Source of the DNA: a virus
Taxonomy: Duplodnaviria > Heunggongvirae > Uroviricota > Caudoviricetes
Reading direction: 5' to 3' (one strand)
IMG/VR virus record: IMGVR_UViG_2711768101_000011
Length of the DNA stretch: 16,377 nt
This document shows positions 2,216 to 15,664 of the stretch, piece after piece (the first letter of the stretch is position 1; each line of letters opens with the position of its first letter). The notes below the pieces were generated by a model. That model searched no databases and was not told the origin of the DNA. It saw only the letters and a list, made by a program, of their open reading frames with translations. The position numbers and the translations under genes were made by a program.

Positions 2216-2418
2216 ATTTTCACTTTTTTAAATCCAACGACAGACGGCTGGCATTTAAGTATTGTGAAATATTATCAAATGTAATCATCATTGATTTACA
2301 AAAGATACATTTTGCCCCGAAAGGATTCATGTCAGAAACATCAAAAGATGATGTTCTATACTGGGAACCATGACAACACGGGCATCTAAAGTGAATATGG
2401 TTTGTAATATTGTCTACC

Positions 2419-2631
2419 TCAAAGCGCCACTACATGAACAGCGGCAGGACCTTTAGGTCCGTTCTCAATACCAAATTCAACTTCCTGATTCTCAGTTAAT
2501 GTTTTGAAATCGTTGCTCTGAATTGCTGAGAAATGGACAAACACATCTTTGCTGCCATCTTTCGGCGTGATGAAACCAAAACCTTTTTCAGGGTTAAACC
2601 ATTTCACTAAACCAGTCATTTTGTTAGACAT
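2419..2631 (-). CDS. cspI: CspA-family cold shock protein (70 aa)
   Basis: [38 protein letters not shown]... carries RNP1/RNP2-type cold-shock domain motifs; AAGG Shine-Dalgarno; long AT-rich leader typical of csp genes; cspI versus cspB assignment is from context. Confidence 0.85.
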
Positions 2632-2992
2632 AATTATTACCTTTTGAAGAAATTAGCCCTTGGGCAGAATGGTCCGAAAAAAATATCAGAGAGAAAAACC
2701 AACAAGGAAATCTCAAGAGGTACAAATAATAAAATTATAACAATGACTGCTTCAGATAAATTTGTAACAAACCAGAACACCATTAACGCATGATTAACCA
2801 CCCATAGCAAGGATTACTTTTGTAAAGAAAAACACAGCAATGAAAGAATAGCTTTATTTATTAATAAAACGTGTCATTCTGATTAAGACCTTTTATCTTA
2901 CCCTTAAGATTTCAGGAATTTTGGCTCATGGAAGAGTCCTTTTTATTTAAATTTTACATTCCGCGATGTAAATGTTCCGATTTAATATTACC

Positions 2993-4016
<1,024 letters not shown>

Positions 4017-4020
<4 letters not shown>

Positions 4021-4328
4021 ATATATTTATGATGAGGACGCTCGTGCTTATTGGCTGGATTTTCAATCTTAAAGGAGTACTGATGCTGCAGATAAGACTC
4101 AACTTTTTCTGACAATTTTTCTCCTACTTCCAGGAAGACTTGCCGGACGCTCCTTCTGGCTGCTGCCTCATAAAACTCCAGCGCAGCTCCTTCAACACGG
4201 TCCATGGCGACATCCAGGCCAAAAATTTCACCGTCAAAGCGTTCTTTGTCCTGTAAGGCTACAGTTACTGTAACTTTATTCTCAAAATTACGGACTCCTT
4301 TCACAACCAGTTCATAGTCTTGAGTCAT
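4017..4328 (-). CDS. DUF1327-like prophage protein (YdfR-like)
   Basis: Translation MTQDYELVVKGVRNFENKVTVTVALQDKERFDGEIFGLDV...; sits between holin and lysozyme as ydfR does in Qin; start set to internal Met. Confidence 0.55.
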
Positions 4329-5154: not shown

Positions 5155-6350
<1,196 letters not shown>

Positions 6351-7058: not shown

Positions 7059-8018
7059 TTAATTCACCATCAGTCTTAGAGCCAGTTCTTCCGGATAGGG
7101 ATCGAAGTAATTCTGTGTAAGCAAGTAATCATTAGGATACTCACCCAGATAATGCTTCAGCAGAGTCAACGGCGCAAGAAGAGGCAATGTGCCAAAGCGA
7201 TAGTTAAGTATAACCTCGCTCAACTCTTTACGCTGGCGTGTACTTAAGTAATTACTAAAATACCCCTGTATATGCATCAGCACATTCGTGTGATTTTTAC
7301 GTGATGCTGGTTTTCTGAGAATCGCCATCAGATTATCACGATACACCTCAAAGTATGATTCAAGGTCCGCCCACTCGTGTATTGCAGCCACAAATGGTCC
7401 CATATCTTTATAGCCTGCCTGGCTATGCGCCAACAACTGAAGCTTATAACGACTATGAAAAGCTAATAACTCTCTTCTTGATAATTTCTCCTTGTAAAGA
7501 TGATTGAGCTCATGCAAAGCAAAAACTCTTTCAATAAAATTCTCACGAAGCACTGGATCATGTAATCGCCCATCCTCTTCAACCGGTAGCCAGGAAAACT
7601 TTTCCATCAAAGTGCTCGTAAATAGTCCCACCCCATCTTTACGACCTCGATTACCATTTTCATCATAGACACGCACGCGCTCCATGCCACAGCTGGGAGA
7701 TTTAGCACAAACCACAAACCCCGATACATCCTTTAATTTGTCCATATAAGAACGACTAAACTCTGTCATTCTCTCTGTCACATCCTCATTCTGGTCGTGG
7801 CTGAAACACATCCGTATATTTCCTTGCTTCGAGCGCACAAGTCGTAGAGCAGGACGCGGAACTGGCAGCCCTATAGCCATTTCCGGACATACTGGTCTGA
7901 ATGTTACCCATTCCACTAATTTGTCCATTAAAAAGTCATCTCTTTTGTGACCACCATCAAAACGAACAGCAGAACCGCCCAAACAACCGCTGATCCCAAT
8001 CACAGGTTTTTTTATCAT
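7059..8018 (-). CDS. DUF523-DUF1722 fusion protein (TudS / YbgA-like putative Fe-S thiouracil desulfidase family)
   Basis: 319 aa; N-terminal Cys-containing motifs (GISGCLGG, RPVCPE, KSPSCG) consistent with DUF523; C-terminal half YbgA/DUF1722-like; strong AAGGGGGAGGAA Shine-Dalgarno before the ATG. Confidence 0.7.
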   Translation of the reverse strand: MIKKPVIGISGCLGGSAVRFDGGHKRDDFLMDKLVEWVTFRPVCPEMAIGLPVPRPALRLVRSKQGNIRMCFSHDQNEDVTERMTEFSRSYMDKLKDVSGFVVCAKSPSCGMERVRVYDENGNRGRKDGVGLFTSTLMEKFSWLPVEEDGRLHDPVLRENFIERVFALHELNHLYKEKLSRRELLAFHSRYKLQLLAHSQAGYKDMGPFVAAIHEWADLESYFEVYRDNLMAILRKPASRKNHTNVLMHIQGYFSNYLSTRQRKELSEVILNYRFGTLPLLAPLTLLKHYLGEYPNDYLLTQNYFDPYPEELALRLMVN

Positions 8019-8210: not shown

Positions 8211-8735
8211 ATGAAGTTATGGCCTGTGTTGACTGGCATTGCACTCTCTTTCACTCTTATAGCATGTAAGGCCCCGACACCACCTAAAGGTGTGCAGCCG
8301 ATTACAAATTTTGACGCCAACCGCTACCTCGGAAAATGGTATGAAATAGCTCGCCTCGAGAACTGGTTCGAACGTGGTCTGGAACAGGTCAGCGCTACTT
8401 ATGAAAAACGGAACGACGGAGGGATTCGCGTACTTAACCGTGGATACGATCCAACGAAAAACAAATGGAGCGAGAGCGAAGGTAAAGCATACTTTACTGG
8501 AGATACTAAAACTGCAGCGTTGAAAGTTTCGTTTTTTGGCCCCTTCTATGGTGGCTATAATGTAATCAAGCTGGATGATGAGTATAAGTATGCTCTTGTC
8601 AGTGGTCCGAACAGAGAATACCTATGGATTCTGGCAAGGACCCAAACTATTCCAGATAATGTAAAAGCAGACTATGTGCGTACCGCTCAAAAGTTGGGAT
8701 TCAATGTCAATGAACTATTATGGGTTAAACAATAA
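8211..8735 (+). CDS. blc: Outer-membrane lipocalin, Blc homologue
   Basis: Lipoprotein signal peptide with lipobox LIAC; lipocalin motifs (NFDANRYLGKWYEIARLENWFERG, KVSFFGPFYGGYNVIKLD) closely match Blc but are clearly diverged from the chromosomal copy as I remember it. Confidence 0.8.
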   Translation: MKLWPVLTGIALSFTLIACKAPTPPKGVQPITNFDANRYLGKWYEIARLENWFERGLEQVSATYEKRNDGGIRVLNRGYDPTKNKWSESEGKAYFTGDTKTAALKVSFFGPFYGGYNVIKLDDEYKYALVSGPNREYLWILARTQTIPDNVKADYVRTAQKLGFNVNELLWVKQ

Positions 8736-11149: not shown

Positions 11150-11305
11150 TTACTCCTCAGGTTCGTAAGCTGTGAAGACAGCGACCTCCGTCTGGTCGGT
11201 TCGGATTCGTACCTCGCAGAGGTCTTTCCTCGTTACCAGTGCCGTCACTATGACGGTTAAACAGATGACGATCAGGGCGATTAACATCGCCTTTTGCTGC
11301 TTCAT
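11150..11305 (-). CDS. hokD: Hok-family type I toxin (HokD/RelF-like, 51 aa)
   Basis: MKQQKAMLIALIVICLTVIVTALVTRKDLCEVRIRTDQTEVAVFTAYEPEE; AAGGAG Shine-Dalgarno before the internal ATG; the ORF-track ORF extends in frame upstream to 11362. Confidence 0.8.
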   Translation of the reverse strand: MKQQKAMLIALIVICLTVIVTALVTRKDLCEVRIRTDQTEVAVFTAYEPEE

Positions 11306-11480
11306 AGCCTGCTTCTCCTTGCCTTTCGGCACGTAAGAGGCTAACCTACATGTGTCTAGCATGAAATTGGCCTCAGATTAATGTTAAGCGTCTTGCAGGA
11401 CGCGTAATGTTAACTGGGGCTTTTCTCTATCTGCCGTTGATGTTCATGCCCGAGGCAGATAGCCTCAAGCACCCGCAGCC
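11306..11480 (-). promoter_or_regulatory. hok mRNA leader region with structured elements (possible antisense/sok-equivalent region)
   Basis: Perfect 9-bp inverted repeat CTATCTGCC (11427-11435) / GGCAGATAG (11454-11462); hok loci are known to be controlled through leader structure and an antisense RNA; no sok promoter was positively identified. Confidence 0.3.
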
Positions 11481-11917: not shown

Positions 11918-12601
11918 TCATTCCTGGCCTTCTTTACCGTAGTGGAGTTGACCAATTTTGATTAGAGGGCGTCCCTGAGATTTGCGGTGTAGATTGGTAT
12001 CGCGCAGTGAATACACGCAGCCACAATATTCCTGCTGATAGAATTGTTCGCGCTTGCTGATTTCAATCATGCGGGAAGAGCCGCCCTGCTTTCGCCAGTT
12101 ATAATCCCAGTACACCATGCCCGGATAATACGCGACGGCTCGCCGTCCACAGTCGTTAACCTGCTGCATATTTTTCCAGCGTGAAATGCCCAGTGAGCTA
12201 CTGATCACACTGAAACCATTTTCAGCGGCATACAGCGCAGTCCGCTCAAAACGCATGTCAAAACACATGGTACAACGGATCCCTCGTTCAGGCTCCCATT
12301 CCATTCCTTTGGCTCGCTCAAACCAGTTGTCTGTGTCGTAATCAGCATCAATAAATGGCACGCCGTGTTGTTTAGCAAAGCGAATATTCTCATCCTTACG
12401 AATTAAATACTCTTTCTGAGGATGAATGTTCGGGTTGTAGAAAAAGATGGTGTAGTCGATTCCCGAGGCCTGAAGCGCCTCCATCACTTCACCGGAACAT
12501 GGAGCACAGCAAGAGTGCAGTAATAGTTTTTTTGCCCCGTTTGGGAGCTCCAATTTGGGGCGTTTGAAATCAGCAACAGTCATAAATGTGTTTATGAGGT
12601 T
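11918..12601 (-). CDS. DUF208 / QueH-like Fe-S protein (epoxyqueuosine-reductase-like)
   Basis: [13 protein letters not shown] motif near the N-terminus plus CTMC and YCGC Cys motifs, consistent with the DUF208 (QueH) family as I remember it; start uncertain (12601 or 12580), no clear Shine-Dalgarno. Confidence 0.6.
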
Positions 12602-12636
12602 CATGAAAATAGCAAAAAGTGTAGCATCAGAACGGG

Positions 12637-12870
12637 CTATCGGAAACAGATGTCTAAATCTGGTAATGTCTGCTTTTGATGCAAAGCAGACAACCACGGC
12701 AGCGCACGAAAATCAGCGATAATGTCGGGATTAATAATCGGGTGACGTCCATCACATAGCGAATGTTCCTCTTTCCTGATATCGCTAAATATCGACCATT
12801 CGTCATTCTTATCGAACCAGAGCATGCGACTGCCACAGCACATGTCGAGAATGGTAGCCGATGTACTCAC
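12637..12870 (-). CDS. Hypothetical small Cys-rich protein (77 aa)
   Basis: GTG start overlapping the upstream stop (GTGA) with GGGAGG Shine-Dalgarno inside the upstream gene; motif [14 protein letters not shown] loosely resembles a SAM-binding motif I but the protein is too short for a methyltransferase. Confidence 0.4.
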
Positions 12871-13289
12871 AGCATCACCTCCCGATAATTCCCCTGATAA
12901 AACGTCAGAACACGCTGCATAACTTCGCTCTTCCGGCACTCGCGACAGATTATGTTTAGACGACTGTCGTAGCGACGTATTTCTCCATCAGGTAATGACC
13001 AGATAAGGTCCGGATCAACCACAGCAGGTTTCTTCACCTTTGCCCTCGAGAGTTTTTTGCGGGCGTTTTGCCAGTCCTTACGCGCCTGTTCAGACGGGAA
13101 TAACCCGTAGCCGGAGTTGTATACATCGCCACTGGCTACCAGCTCTCTGGCAAGAACGCTCATCAGATATCTAGTCGCACCTGTTTTAGCTTCCAGTTGC
13201 CGTAACGTCTCACGACCGCTCTGGCGCACGAGTTCCACCACTTGCCCTTTAATTTTTTCCCGCTCTTCTTGTGTAAAAACTTTTGCCAC
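12867..13289 (-). CDS. Hypothetical phage early protein (140 aa)
   Basis: GTG start with strong AAGGGGGAG Shine-Dalgarno; Lys/Arg-rich; no family recognised. Confidence 0.5.
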   Translation of the reverse strand: MAKVFTQEEREKIKGQVVELVRQSGRETLRQLEAKTGATRYLMSVLARELVASGDVYNSGYGLFPSEQARKDWQNARKKLSRAKVKKPAVVDPDLIWSLPDGEIRRYDSRLNIICRECRKSEVMQRVLTFYQGNYREVML

Positions 13290-13329
13290 AACTCCCCCTT
13301 AAAATTACCTCATGACCTGAAATCAACAC

Positions 13330-14295
13330 TTATCCTCTGAAACCAGGCGGAATTTCTGTATCCGGTTCAGAAATATGATTAACACAACGCTGTACAGGTG
13401 AACGTCCCAGGCGGATGACCAGTTCGTCCCATTTTTCGCGGAGCTTTGACGGGCTCATGATGTTTTTTACCCAGAATGGATCTCGCTGAACCCGACCAAA
13501 CATTTCGCAAATTTGTCTGTGGCTTCTGCCATCCAGCATCCGCATTGTGCGCACGTCATTGGCCCAGGCAGTCCAGTTAGGCTCTTTTGGTCGCATGATC
13601 TCGCCATCATCACTGGCTGCCTGTTCGTAGAGACCCACGATCCGCCCCCAGATCCACTGCGCACACGCCAAATCCTCCCTGCTACCCCACTGGCGTTTTT
13701 TCGCACTAAACACAACCGCGTCGGAGTTCCGGGTTAAAAAATCCTGTTCAGTCGTCTGCGGGTCCGGTTGCGAAGCTTCCGGACGAAAAGTGTTTTTATT
13801 CTCTGTAGTAATCTCTGTTGTATTCTCTGTAAGATCATCAGGCCATTTTGACCCGATGACATTGGATCGTTTTGAACCAATGGAGCGTTTCATTTTGACC
13901 TCTTCCATCGTGTCATTTTGACCTGATGGAGCGGCGCATTTTGAACCGATGGATTCGTTCAATTTGCCACCATCTAAAAGCTCGCTCCCATAGTTGATCG
14001 TGTAGAAATTGGTCATATCGCGCTTTGATTTATTGAGCTTTTCACAACGCAAAAGCCCCAGCGTTTTCAGACTTGCAAACGCGCGCTTTAACGTTGACTC
14101 TGACCAGAATGGGAACTGTTCCAGCCATTGTTCCGTTGTGTTATAAATCCAGCGAACACCATCACATTCCATACCGGAGTTGGTATCTCTCAACCAGTAG
14201 TGCAGTTGTTGCAAAACAATGGCTTCGTTTAAGCCGATTTTCATTGCCAGCTGCGTGTTTATAACCAGTGGGCGTTCAGCAAAAAGAAGACTCAT
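13330..14295 (-). CDS. Phage replication initiation protein (replisome organizer, O-like / YdaU-like) with internal origin iterons
   Basis: N-terminus MSLLFAERPLVINTQLAMKIGLNEAIVLQQLHYWL... is replisome-organiser-like; direct DNA repeats inside the gene correspond to SIGSK peptide repeats; start set to ATG at 14295. Confidence 0.65.
   Translation of the reverse strand: MSLLFAERPLVINTQLAMKIGLNEAIVLQQLHYWLRDTNSGMECDGVRWIYNTTEQWLEQFPFWSESTLKRAFASLKTLGLLRCEKLNKSKRDMTNFYTINYGSELLDGGKLNESIGSKCAAPSGQNDTMEEVKMKRSIGSKRSNVIGSKWPDDLTENTTEITTENKNTFRPEASQPDPQTTEQDFLTRNSDAVVFSAKKRQWGSREDLACAQWIWGRIVGLYEQAASDDGEIMRPKEPNWTAWANDVRTMRMLDGRSHRQICEMFGRVQRDPFWVKNIMSPSKLREKWDELVIRLGRSPVQRCVNHISEPDTEIPPGFRG
13798..13975. 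repeat. Putative origin of replication iterons inside the O-like gene
   Basis: Five to six CATTTTGACC-like repeats at about 23-bp spacing (13844, 13869, 13891, 13914, 13937, 13960), preceded by three copies of TCTCTGT at 11-12-bp spacing (about 13798-13830). Confidence 0.6.
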
Positions 14296-14797
14296 AATTC
14301 CATCCAGCTTTTTGTTGGTATTGCTGTCGATACGCAAGCTTGAAAGCAATTGCTTTTTCTATAAGTTCGTCAGTTTCACGATCTACAACGGCAGGATCTG
14401 CAAAAAGCAGTCCGGATTCCACCACATCGCCATATTCTTTATTTAACCCGGCGATCATGTACGTAATACTTTTTCCATCACTGATCTCACGATACAACCT
14501 GAAATCACTAATCCGGATAGCCTCCATAATTGCAGGCACTAGCGCTGTGAACTTTTCACGCTTATCCCTGGTGTCGATAGCCTTCCAGCGTTCGAATATC
14601 TTCACTCGATTAACGCTAAGCGCTCGCTGATCAACCGCGCCACCTTCATATGTGACACGCTGAACATCGATGTTCGGGCGCTCTTTCAAAGCCCAGAATG
14701 CTTCAGTGATTAATATCGTCGCCTGCTCCTGTGTCATTCCTGGTCGACATATCCAGGCATCCAGAGCCTCACGAGCCTGTTCAGGAGTGATTTTCAT
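14276..14797 (-). CDS. Hypothetical early protein (173 aa) in the cII/YdaT position
   Basis: ATG at 14797 lies 17 nt inside the 3' end of dicC; its stop lies 20 nt inside the start of the O-like gene; no confident family call. Confidence 0.45.
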   Translation of the reverse strand: MKITPEQAREALDAWICRPGMTQEQATILITEAFWALKERPNIDVQRVTYEGGAVDQRALSVNRVKIFERWKAIDTRDKREKFTALVPAIMEAIRISDFRLYREISDGKSITYMIAGLNKEYGDVVESGLLFADPAVVDRETDELIEKAIAFKLAYRQQYQQKAGWNYESSFC

Positions 14798-15008
14798 TGT
14801 TCAACCGCCCCGCCCGCTTCGTCTTACGATATTCGTCATAAACTTTGGGATCATACTGAAGCTCCCCGCCAGATGCCTCCTGTAGACGCATCGCGCGACC
14901 TTCAGGAACCAGTATCCCCCAAGCAGCAACACTTGCCAGTCTCACTCCTGCGGCATTGGCAAGCTTTGTTTTGCTGCCAAAAAAAGTAATTGCGTCAACT
15001 TTAAGCAT
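14781..15008 (-). CDS. dicC: Cro-like regulator DicC
   Basis: MLKVDAITFFGSKTKLANAAGVRLAS...EGRAMRLQEASGGELQYDPKVYDEYRKTKRAGRLNNENHS is near-identical to DicC over its C-terminal half from memory; GAGGGGG Shine-Dalgarno; divergent from dicA. Confidence 0.8.
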   Translation of the reverse strand: MLKVDAITFFGSKTKLANAAGVRLASVAAWGILVPEGRAMRLQEASGGELQYDPKVYDEYRKTKRAGRLNNENHS

Positions 15009-15020
15009 CAAAGCCCCCTC

Positions 15021-15040
15021 TTGTTAGACTTTTCTAACAT
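15021..15040. promoter_or_regulatory. Operator-like palindrome in the dicC-dicA intergenic region
   Basis: TGTTAGA-CTTT-TCTAACA perfect 7-bp inverted repeat between the divergent repressor and cro-like genes. Confidence 0.45.
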
Positions 15041-15088
15041 TATTGTGCGCGGGATACCTAAGTCAAGAAAAATTAGAATTACCTAACT

Positions 15089-15496
15089 ATGGATACAAGA
15101 ACCCTAGGCCAGCGAGTTCTGGCGCGACGAAAAGAATTACGCTTAACACAACGAGAAGCTGCGCGCCTCGCTGGAGTTGCTCACGTCACAATTTCACAAT
15201 GGGAAAGAGACGAAACCCAGCCAGTCGGAAAACGATTGTTTGCTTTAGCGGATGCTCTGAAGTGCTCACCTACATGGCTAATGTTTGGTGACGAAGACAA
15301 GGCACCAGTGCCTGCACAAGAACTTCATGTGGAAACAGAGCTAACTCCCAACCACAAAGAATTGATCGAATTATTCGATGCTCTTCCATCTTCCGAGCAG
15401 GAAGCCTTGCTGTCTGAAATGCGCGCAAGAGTAGAAAACTTCAACAAACTCTTCGAAGAAATGCTTAAAGCGCGTAAAAATAAATCAATAAAATAA
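15089..15496 (+). CDS. dicA: Prophage repressor DicA (XRE-family HTH)
   Basis: 135 aa; HTH region LTQREAARLAGVAHVTISQWE and C-terminal MRARVENFNKLFEEMLKARKN closely resemble DicA from memory. Confidence 0.85.
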   Translation: MDTRTLGQRVLARRKELRLTQREAARLAGVAHVTISQWERDETQPVGKRLFALADALKCSPTWLMFGDEDKAPVPAQELHVETELTPNHKELIELFDALPSSEQEALLSEMRARVENFNKLFEEMLKARKNKSIK

Positions 15497-15531
15497 CATT
15501 CTTTTCAAGTGATTAGTTGCGCCCACTCTTT

Positions 15532-15551
15532 TTGTTAGATCAATCTAACAA
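15532..15551. promoter_or_regulatory. Second operator-like palindrome downstream of dicA, upstream of the ydfA-like gene
   Basis: TTGTTAGA-TCAA-TCTAACAA perfect 8-bp inverted repeat, same half-site as at 15021-15040; a degenerate third copy TGTTAGG-TTAT-TCTAAAT at 15570-15587. Confidence 0.45.
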
Positions 15552-15664
15552 AAAACACTTGCCTCTCATGTTAGGTTATTCTAAATTACTTTCCATCAAG
15601 ACACCGCACGGTGTTCTCAGCAAACAGTTCCGCGACCCCGGCGTTAAGGGGAAATGAGGTCAGC

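Follow-up and report, generated by a model that had tools for sequence, protein, structure and literature searches.

A putative lambda-style origin inside the initiator gene of a Qin-type prophage, and a DnaT-like tail on the initiator

The replication module and its initiator

The window, by which we mean the whole stretch of 16,377 nucleotides analysed here, is a Qin-type (DicA/DicC) lambdoid prophage of E. coli. As in lambda, the replication genes follow a cro and a cII-like gene in a rightward operon (Table 1). The start of the initiator gene overlaps the YdaT-family/cII-like gene by 20 nt, so the two are probably part of one rightward operon. RefSeq gives the initiator gene the same boundaries in identical DNA and names its product 'hypothetical protein'. 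No Pfam family matched the protein at E<=0.01, and it was identified instead through PHROGs (PHROG 391, 'replication initiation O-like', E 1.4e-91), tblastn and a search of PDB sequences. There is strong support for an initiator composed of an N-terminal winged helix, a predicted disordered linker (AF2 pLDDT 24-28 over residues 109-175) and a lambda-O-type C-terminal domain. The initial annotation had described the gene as O-like, and this applies to the C-terminal domain, which is homologous to that of lambda O (residues 170-294, 36% identity, tblastn E 2e-16), and not to the N-terminal domain, which is unlike that of lambda: tblastn similarity to lambda begins at residue 170, and the N-terminal homology of lambda O (Pfam Phage_rep_O) was absent from the protein. 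The fold closest to the N-domain is that of a plasmid replication initiator (4pta), at 12% sequence identity. The initiator nevertheless differs from the staphylococcal RepA_N-type proteins (pSK41/pTZ2162 RepA, PDB 4PTA): it has no Pfam RepA_N match, and RepA has another C-terminal domain and other host-factor contacts and belongs to a Gram-positive plasmid, not a lambdoid phage.

Table 1. Features of the replication module and its surroundings (positions in the window)
Feature	Position	Strand	Basis or remark
DUF977 gene, 140 aa, next downstream of initiator	12867..13289	-	Pfam DUF977, E 4.7e-29; lambda ren position
Replication initiator gene, 321 aa	13330..14295	-	stop codon 13330-13332; ORF list
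DnaT-like C-terminal tail VQRCVNHISEPDTEIPPGFRG, residues 301-321; proposed DnaB-DnaC docking motif	13333..13395	-	
Helical C-terminal domain, residues 180-297, homologous to lambda O C-terminal domain	13405..13758	-	tblastn; AF2 block pLDDT 60-84
Conserved small palindrome GTCCGGAAGCTTCGCAACCGGAC, just past AT-rich segment	13762..13784	-	
AT-rich segment, candidate DNA-unwinding element (DUE)	13785..13835	-	3 x 12-bp ACAGAGAATACA repeats at 13797-13832
Iteron array, six copies, 23/24-bp spacing	13836..13974	-	repeat finders
Five strong iteron cores GGTCAAAATG (coding strand)	13844-13853, 13868-13877, 13891-13900, 13914-13923, 13937-13946		
N-terminal winged-helix domain, residues 9-108, presumed iteron-binding domain	13972..14271	-	
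YdaT-family / cII-like gene, directly upstream of initiator	14276..14797	-	Pfam YdaT_toxin; PHROG 163 'CII-like transcriptional activator'
DicC/Cro-like regulator, first gene of rightward operon crossing origin	14781..15011	-	Pfam P22_Cro; RefSeq annotation
DicA-like repressor, divergently transcribed	15089..15496	+	Pfam HTH_3; annotation

The identification of this segment as the replication module of a Qin/mEp460-type lambdoid phage, with an oriλ-like build, is likewise strongly supported. Of 5426 complete E. coli genomes, 522 (about a tenth) contain at least 80% of the 3-kb module, and the complete phage genome HannyBb (45 kb) carries the loader-less module at 98% DNA identity, with an initiator that is 99.4% identical. 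It is also present in PhiR42_1 and in mEp460_ev081, where the gene order is the same as in the window. Its occurrence in phage genomes is the sole indirect support that the segment could replicate autonomously when supplied with the initiator. The prophage copy in the window is otherwise decayed, with IS insertions and truncated genes, and for this reason its own origin may never fire.

An origin within the initiator gene

An origin inside the initiator gene is classical lambda biology, and this layout in a Qin-type prophage is ordinary; the explanation for an absent loader is less so. The five to six repeats at about 23-bp spacing and the three TCTCTGT repeats reported in the initial annotation were both recovered in place by repeat finders, the latter as three 12-bp units. 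On the plus strand the iteron copies start at 13836, 13860, 13883, 13906, 13929 and 13952 (spacing 24, 23, 23, 23 and 23), and the sixth copy (13952-13974) is degenerate. With at most one mismatch allowed, CATTTTGAMC matches five times within 120 bp, while dinucleotide-preserving shuffling of the window, repeated 300 times, gave clusters of at most 3 and usually of 1. The clustering and regular spacing of the iterons are significant and far above chance; the window-wide count alone (8 versus 3.7 expected) is not. As the genes lie on the minus strand, the order in the direction of transcription is iterons, 12-mers and then the palindrome. The AT-rich segment is 70.6% A+T and includes the 40-bp windows with the lowest duplex stability in the gene. 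No DnaA box (<=1 mismatch) and no IHF consensus were found in 13700-14050, which has only three GATC sites.

The repeats are also visible in the encoded peptide (SIGSK, SIGSK, VIGSK and TENTTEITTENK), and they could be repeats of the protein (SIGSK, TENTTE), or chance, and not a cis-acting origin. We find this hardly credible. A period of 23 bp is not divisible by 3, and one and the same DNA core yields GSK, GQN and VKM in its three reading frames. The cores sit in codon phases 1, 0, 2, 1 and 1, thus in all three, and the array encodes residues ~108-153 of the disordered linker between the winged helix and the C-terminal domain, from which it follows that selection acts on the DNA. The clustering, moreover, exceeded that in all 300 shuffles, and although the repeat region is predicted to encode disorder, its DNA is conserved more strongly than that of any other part of the gene. 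Among four homologs (69-75% amino acid identity; E. coli and Citrobacter by cluster labels), invariant DNA columns amount to 55% gene-wide versus 67-87% over gene nt 271-540, and their share peaks (87%) at the last iteron and the 12-mers, so the origin stretch is the best-conserved DNA of the initiator gene at this divergence. The 12-bp array lies at an identical gene position in all three homologs. When homologous initiator genes were checked, the iterons were found to be conserved in L006, L007 and L009, with the 23-bp array recovered in L007 and L009. A further homolog, L003, has a different N-domain and, at the same place, different iterons. Natural in-frame deletions of 93 nt lie exactly between iterons 2 and 6.

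A lambda-style origin embedded in the initiator gene, as originally suggested, is therefore well supported: DNA that is conserved in diverged homologs encodes a predicted disordered linker and lies next to the least stable duplex. The likeness to lambda extends to the placing of the origin between the segments for the DNA-binding and C-terminal domains and to its polarity, with iterons first and the AT-rich unwinding element after them in the direction of transcription. The lambda origin has four O sites and a DUE of roughly 40 bp (PMC12661323), whereas the window has six iterons at 23-bp spacing and of different sequence. Rac differs in that TRF detected no comparable iteron array in ydaU. 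We propose that the N-domain binds the iterons and that the resulting nucleoprotein complex would melt the AT-rich block.

The absent helicase loader and the DUF977 gene

The initial annotation had noted that the next gene encodes only 140 amino acids with no visible ATPase motifs, and that no helicase-loader gene follows. Both observations hold. The protein has no Walker A motif and no loader-like fold match, its only Pfam match is DUF977 (HMM search), and in relatives its gene sits downstream of genuine loaders: in L006 the loader is lambda P, in L033 it is encoded by a DnaC-like gene. Lambda P itself is not known to have ATPase motifs and is not an ATPase, and missing motifs would for this reason not exclude a loader of the lambda P type. 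The DUF977 protein might then be a new, non-ATPase loader that replaces P or DnaC, and among 177 loci surveyed there are indeed 69 in which its gene is the first to follow that of the initiator. This is highly improbable and was rejected, because DUF977 accompanies the genuine loaders of L006 and L033, at the ren position, and the AF2 model of the protein, a winged helix, matches only generic folds of that class. Other loader-less initiators with the tail described below also precede unrelated genes, such as PerC-like genes and methyltransferases. The DUF977 protein is assigned to PHROG 142 ('Ren-like exclusion protein'); all proteins returned by the homolog search were at least 88% identical, so its alignment is shallow.

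No homolog of P, DnaC or YdaV was found in the window by tblastn, and a scan for Walker A motifs found nothing there either. Across the whole 45-kb genome of HannyBb the same tblastn searches and Walker A scan matched only the terminase, and no helicase, loader, primase or polymerase is annotated or detected there; mEp460_ev081 encodes no loader between the initiator and Q. Walker A proteins near some relatives (L060, 518 aa, a KAP NTPase; L023, 495 aa, no family) were set aside as accessory genes and not loaders. With the initiator and its origin as the phage's only replication gene, the module belongs to the 'initiator-solo' class of phage modules, which is reportedly a class in the 2006 classification of Weigel and Seitz. 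The window thus differs from lambda, in which P directly follows the initiator gene, and from Rac, which encodes its own DnaC paralog, YdaV. It resembles the Rac YdaU-YdaV (and YdaW) region in having DUF977/DUF1627-type winged-helix genes after the replication genes and a YdaS/YdaT-type regulatory region upstream.

The same N-domain and iterons occur in three arrangements. In form A, that of the window, an initiator ending in IPPGFRG is followed by DUF977; in form B (L033 and six other loci) an initiator with the same ending is followed by a DnaC-like gene, DUF1627 and DUF977; and in form C (L006) the initiator ends in ...GDWNSADGWEDVL and is followed by lambda P and DUF977. Form C rests on one contig, L006, as no further P-linked member with the window's N-domain was found among the 80 P loci listed; L003-type N-domains beside P are only 27-40% identical and do not offer a clean comparison. 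In form B (L033 and others), the DnaC-like gene lies 7 bp past the initiator stop codon, and one explanation for the window is that this gene was deleted, turning form B into form A and leaving a non-functional relic in which origin, initiator and tail persist by inertia. The IS insertions and truncated genes of this Qin-type prophage would fit such a history. We nevertheless consider it distinctly improbable. The loader-less module occurs in HannyBb, which has no loader anywhere, as well as in PhiR42_1 and mEp460_ev081; it is the commoner form in IMG/VR, and the frequency of the module in complete E. coli genomes also speaks against a relic. The origin (13730-13957) is identical in sequence in HannyBb, and the loader-less homologs L003, L007 and L009 have diverged tails that still end in IPxGFRG. 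The initial annotation had offered a non-functional replicon as one of two possibilities, and for the module this is unsupported, since it is found unaltered in the phage genomes HannyBb and mEp460_ev081. The evidence favours the other, dependence on host DnaC, because the tail is of the DnaT type and the loaders associated with it are exclusively of the DnaC type.

The C-terminal tail and the type of loader

The extreme C-terminus of the initiator, ...SEPDTEIPPGFRG, is the C-terminal tail of host DnaT, and the motif ends as ...RCVNHISEPDTEIPPGFRG immediately before the stop codon. The 21 C-terminal residues of E. coli DnaT (PDB sequences 2ru8, 6aep and 9zbt) match it, as do positions 160-179 of NCBIfam DnaT; 14 of the last 17 residues agree, and both proteins end in IPPGFRG-COOH. 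The initiator is not a full-length DnaT, a protein made up of an N-terminal domain, an acidic linker and a three-helix-bundle C-terminal domain, scoring 16.4 bits with NF002770 against a cut-off of 201 and matching over positions 160-179 only. A MAFFT alignment hinted that the C-terminal domains of the O type and of DnaT are deeply homologous, but this was rejected, as hhalign gave a probability of 0.1% once the tails were removed. Across four domain families the tail-trimmed values were <=0.5%, except for the DnaT C-terminal domain versus a 'DYPDVFE' domain (20.6%), with sensitivity limited by the shallow profiles. The tail is found on at least four C-terminal domains without mutual profile similarity. 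It is carried by DnaT (followed by dnaC), by Rac YdaU (followed by the DnaC-like YdaV) and by many phage initiators. YdaU ends in ...VNTVSLPDSAIPPGFRG, although it has a DUF1376 N-domain and a C-terminal domain without profile similarity to that of the window's initiator. Only 5 of 14 codons are shared with dnaT at identical tail residues, which argues for an old motif under selection; a recent transfer from dnaT was rejected on the same count.

We define the tail motif as RDxNxxSxPDxxIPxGFRG-COOH. Since the pattern scan demanded Asp at position -10, it misses tails such as ...YSQIPAGFRG. Each scan covers 80-120 loci, and the surveys, which are not phylogenetically independent, gave the following among the matches listed. 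The phage ORFs with the tail number 193: 94 lie beside a DnaC-like gene, 99 beside neither this nor P, and 0 beside P. Among initiators that precede P genes, 0 of 79 carry the tail, and the ending is NTDWIxGV instead, whereas ORFs upstream of DnaC-like genes carry it in 73 of 78 cases, in a set whose loaders are at least 94% identical to one loader. In species-representative genomes, 77 of 87 genuine tail ORFs, again among the matches listed, precede a DnaC-type gene. The 56 genuine tail ORFs with readable record titles are all from Enterobacterales, bar one MAG labelled only 'Proteobacteria'; non-enterobacterial matches in the genome scan proved to be out-of-frame chance matches. The YdaU_C-type domain occurs with either tail, and the type of tail then agrees with the type of loader. 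In these surveys IPxGFRG tails adjoin DnaC-type loaders or no loader and never lambda P. Part of this linkage could be hitch-hiking, given that 7 bp separate the loader gene from the DNA that encodes the tail.

The tail probably lets the phage use the host's helicase-loading machinery instead of a loader of its own. Unlike the origin, this mechanism is one that we infer. The DnaT-like tail would dock DnaB6-DnaC6, through DnaC or DnaB, so that the initiator brings host DnaB-DnaC directly to the melted origin and the helicase is delivered without a phage loader. The tail would be a portable short motif that takes the place of the NTDWIxGV-type end of P-paired initiators; compare the window's IPPGFRG with ...NTDWIYGVDL in P-linked O proteins. 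Taken together, the reading that we think likely, if by no means certain, is that of a lambda-style origin with an initiator that uses its DnaT-like tail to recruit host DnaB-DnaC. E. coli DnaT offers a parallel: it has the same type of C-terminal motif, its gene is directly followed by one of the DnaC type, an order found in the phage modules too, and it is thought to bring DnaB-DnaC to DNA. It differs in that only the tail matches and in that PriA/PriB direct DnaT to forks, with no targeting to an origin through iterons.

How DnaT or the preprimosome recruits DnaB-DnaC is stated to be still unknown (2024, PMC11087952; 2026, PMC13377028), and literature searches on the motif or on tested functions of the DnaT tail returned nothing relevant. 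Another possibility is that the origin is as described and the tail works with other partners, either through PriA, PriB or SSB, so that a primosome of the restart (phiX174) type is assembled where the origin has melted, or by binding and stabilizing the unwound single strand, with host DnaC needed only indirectly. DnaT works within a PriA/PriB/DnaT preprimosome, and its N-terminal domain, not its tail, has been proposed as the recruiter of DnaB/DnaC (PMC13377028). A direct DnaT-DnaC contact is not shown (PMC11087952), and the tail could act on DNA, as DnaT that lacks residues 154-179 binds ssDNA less tightly and less cooperatively (PMC4132743). We nonetheless regard this as unlikely, because PriA, SSB or ssDNA as partner should be equally useful to P-paired initiators, yet these lack the tail that most ORFs upstream of DnaC-like loaders carry. 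Phages with their own DnaC paralog still retain it.

Recruitment of DnaB-DnaC by the tail may have a wider counterpart, which we put forward tentatively and with rather less confidence: that the IPxGFRG tail is the element by which DnaT hands DnaB6-DnaC6 to DNA, and that lambdoid initiators copy it to capture the helicase bound to host or phage DnaC, much as NTDWIxGV ends couple O to P. If this is true, the coupling of initiator to loader in phages of enterobacteria would be determined by C-terminal peptides of ~20 residues that can be exchanged for one another, and phages without a loader, like that of the window, would be DnaT mimics. At hundreds of loci, in phages and bacteria, a 20-residue peptide in common with DnaT tracks loader type almost perfectly, a comparative pattern that points to one short, directly testable peptide. 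It also suggests an annotation rule, in which the last residues of an O-like protein predict the loader used and the plausibility of a loader-less module. There is precedent for the joining of O-type and DnaT-type parts in DopC/DopE of Cellvibrionales and Oceanospirillales, where an O-like protein was reported to carry a DnaT C-terminal motif (HHpred versus 2ru8; Brezellec et al. 2017, PMC5509034). DopC is unlike the window's initiator in its lambda-O-type HTH N-terminus, its lack of detectable iterons, its chromosomal location and its P-like partner.

The tail peptide in the window reads VNHISEPDTEIPPGFRG, and its counterpart in DnaT is residues 160-179. The mEp460 initiator is annotated as 'Primosomal protein I', a label that derives from the tail, since the full-length DnaT match fails.

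The origin within the initiator gene

The data support a lambda-style origin within the linker-coding part of its own initiator gene, in a module that has no phage helicase loader. Both repeat arrays described in the initial annotation were recovered at the same positions by repeat finding: the iterons, with the coding-strand core GGTCAAAATG, and the adjoining 12-mers, ACAGAGAATACA. Five matches to the iteron pattern fall within 120 bp, against a maximum of three and usually one in 300 dinucleotide-preserving shuffles. The 12-mers lie in a 51-bp block of 70.6% A+T, and it is here that 40-bp windows of the gene reach their lowest duplex stability. There are three GATC (Dam) sites in or beside the origin (13833, 13865 and 13996), one at the 12-mer/iteron junction and another within iteron 5, and a Dam-type methyltransferase is encoded just downstream in related phages.

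The window was compared at the DNA level with three loci that have the N-domain in common at a protein identity of only 69–75%: L006 (an uncharacterised Logan assembly), L007 (Citrobacter-type) and L009 (E. coli). Invariant columns made up 55% of the whole gene and 67–87% over gene nt 271–540, with the 87% maximum where the last iteron and the 12-mers lie. TRF detected the 12-bp array in all three loci, at one and the same gene position, and the 23-bp array in two of them, L007 and L009; this conservation of the repeats in homologous initiator genes is in keeping with the origin first proposed. The residues encoded by the array stretch (109–175) form a linker in the AlphaFold2 model (pLDDT 24–28) between the winged-helix domain (9–108) and a helical C-terminal domain (180–297). 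The 23-bp period is not divisible by three; the five cores stand in codon phases 1, 0, 2, 1 and 1 and are translated as GSK, GQN and VKM. L003, a CPS-53/YfdN-type relative with a different N-domain, has a different array of 15-bp units at the equivalent place. Conservation, the predicted disordered linker, the codon phases and the L003 array together point to repeats that act at the DNA level, as an origin, rather than as a protein repeat. GTCAAAA, the central part of the Qin-type core, is still present in the L003 iterons, perhaps by coincidence or as a shared half-site.

Natural 290-aa initiator variants (P0016–P0021) have an in-frame 93-nt (31-aa) deletion that runs exactly from iteron 2 to iteron 6, corresponding to ~13860–13952 of the window; it joins these two and leaves the array with two iterons. 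This looks like unequal recombination between iterons, and the 290-aa copies may be ori-defective with the protein intact. Small in-frame ori-minus deletions are found in lambda, and the natural deletion is similar.

Features of the window and of one relative
Feature	Position	Strand	Remark
DicA-like repressor	15089-15496	+	first in gene order
DicC/Cro-like	14781-15011	-	after DicA-like repressor
YdaT/cII-like	14276-14797	-	between DicC/Cro-like and initiator
Initiator	13330-14295	-	RefSeq product name 'hypothetical protein'
Iterons	13836-13974		five strong, one degenerate; spacing 24, 23, 23, 23, 23 bp
12-mers	13797-13832		three
Small palindrome	13762-13784		after 12-mer block
DUF977	12867-13289	-	next after initiator
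Truncated DNA methyltransferase	12685-12870	-	after DUF977; pseudogene
QueH	11918-12583	-	after methyltransferase; end of gene order
hokD/sok	11300-11474; ~11150-11305	-; -	type I toxin-antitoxin; sok RNA Rfam RF01794, 114 bits
Lipocalin	8211-8735	+	cargo
YbgA-family	7059-8018	-	cargo
IS5-like (ISKpn26) transposase	5302-6282	-	interrupts HTH/AraC-type prophage gene
cspA-type thermoregulator 5' UTR	2392-2776	-	5' of cspI; Rfam RF01766, 114 bits
L003 locus (CPS-53/YfdN-type relative)	3339-4280 (L003)		with iterons of 15-bp TCTGACCCGTCAAAA, 4.3 copies

Initiator homology and the absent loader

The initiator matched PHROG 391, 'replication initiation O-like', with an E value of 1.4e-91, and homology of its C-terminal domain to that of lambda O (residues 156–299; PMC12661323) is supported. 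The origin is ordinary lambda-type in design; the N-domain is unlike that of lambda O and is ~46% identical to the N-termini of Staphylococcus phage initiators.

The initial annotation had claimed that no loader gene follows the initiator, and profile search of the 140-aa product of the next gene bore this out: it is Pfam DUF977 (PHROG 'Ren-like exclusion protein'), and its model is a winged helix predicted with confidence, whose fold matches are all generic. DUF977 follows lambda-P in L006, and in L033 it comes after DUF1627 and a DnaC/IstB-like gene; this co-occurrence with genuine loaders rules it out as a loader and places it at the ren position. Neither tblastn with P, DnaC and YdaV as queries nor a Walker A scan revealed a loader in the window or in the complete 45-kb genome of HannyBb, a phage with 98% identical module DNA, a 99.4% identical initiator and an identical origin (13730–13957). 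Phage mEp460_ev081 has the same gene order, with no loader annotated as far as Q, and the PhiR42_1 initiator is 99.4% identical to that of the window. As these three phages carry a matching module or initiator, the loader-less module looks replication-competent at the family level.

A DnaT-like tail and its association with loader type

The final 21 residues of the initiator, VQRCVNHISEPDTEIPPGFRG, match the very end of E. coli DnaT; Rac YdaU has the same kind of ending, and homologs with otherwise diverged tails keep a terminal IP[PAE]GFRG. In HK140 and Stx phage ST2-8624, where O is partnered with P, the O protein terminates in ...NTDWIYGVDL. Three forms of the module share the N-domain and iterons of the window: O ending IPPGFRG and then DUF977, as in the window and most of its relatives; O ending IPPGFRG followed by DnaC-like, DUF1627 and DUF977 genes (seven IMG/VR loci), the DnaC-like gene starting 7 bp past the initiator stop codon; and, in L006, O ending ...GDWNSADGWEDVL with lambda-P and DUF977 after it. 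The tail was found on at least four C-terminal domains that share no profile similarity once it is trimmed; the YdaU_C-type domain can bear either tail, and the tail agrees with the loader type. Codon comparison shows the motif to be old and kept by selection. Three IMG/VR loci (L157, L177 and L189) encode ~270-aa phage proteins whose last ~100 residues are close to the host DnaT C-terminal domain and tail (...EPDSEIPPGFRG), the first ORF 3' not being DnaC-like; these proteins may be relevant to a possible derivation of the dnaT-dnaC operon from phages.

Scans of at least 80–120 loci each sampled related enterobacterial phages and counted kin separately, and the pattern scan demanded Asp at -10; among the matches listed, 193 phage ORFs (126 distinct proteins) had an IPxGFRG end, with a DnaC-like loader neighbour for 94, none for 99 and P for 0. 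The first ORF 3' was DnaC-like in 89 and DUF977 in 69 of the 177 loci listed, and P or DnaB in 0. The tail was present in 0/79 ORFs 5' of P genes among the loci listed, nearly all with NTDWIxGV-like ends, and in 73/78 ORFs 5' of DnaC-like genes among those listed, a narrow set in which identity to one loader is 94% or more. A caveat on this linkage is that the tail-coding DNA physically adjoins the loader gene. In species-representative genomes, 87 of the 120 pattern matches listed were genuine ORF ends, a DnaC-type gene being next in 77 of the 87 (mostly chromosomal dnaT-dnaC) and P in none; the titled tail ORFs (n=56 among the matches listed) were from Enterobacterales, except for one MAG labelled only 'Proteobacteria'. 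The P-paired initiators (L214–L293) have a C-terminal motif of their own, ...(L)DxxNTDWIxGV... or the variant ...WNSxxGWE(S/D)xL, possibly a P-docking counterpart of IPxGFRG.

We propose that the winged helix would bind the iterons, the 12-mer block would melt and, given the association of tail with loader type, the DnaT-type tail would dock host DnaB6-DnaC6. A putative DnaT-like docking peptide best explains the loader-less state, and both the observation in the initial annotation and its interpretation are upheld, possible dependence on host DnaC being the favoured of its two alternatives. Within the complex, the partner of the tail may be either DnaC or DnaB. In published work DnaT has not been shown to contact DnaC (PMC11087952), the DnaT N-domain has been favoured as recruiter (PMC13377028) and the DnaT tail adds to ssDNA binding (PMC4132743). 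One weak pointer to the partner is DnaC A84, which is altered in dnaC1331, a variant with a blocked PriA/PriB pathway (PMC11087952): A84 falls within the motif GQxxALSxA, and the G, Q, A, L, S and A of this motif are invariant in DnaC, YdaV and the L033 loader. The docking-peptide reading yields a testable hypothesis on DnaT itself.

Prophage context and occurrence

In a search with a 3-kb query, the Qin-type prophage in E. coli YJ6 and ETEC6 matched the window at 100% identity and the one in E. coli B REL606 at 99.9%. Of 5426 complete E. coli genomes, 522 contain at least 80% of the 3-kb segment for replication and immunity (12600–15600). The minus strand carries all replication genes. The window's prophage is decayed and defective. 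The start of its methyltransferase pseudogene overlaps the DUF977 stop by 4 nt, and in related phages the methyltransferase is intact, 3' of the same module. Cargo genes encode the epoxyqueuosine reductase QueH, a YbgA-family protein and a lipocalin; the QueH site holds other accessory genes in relatives, one of them encoding the KAP NTPase of L060. In YJ6, IS2 and IS100 lie just past the right end of the window.
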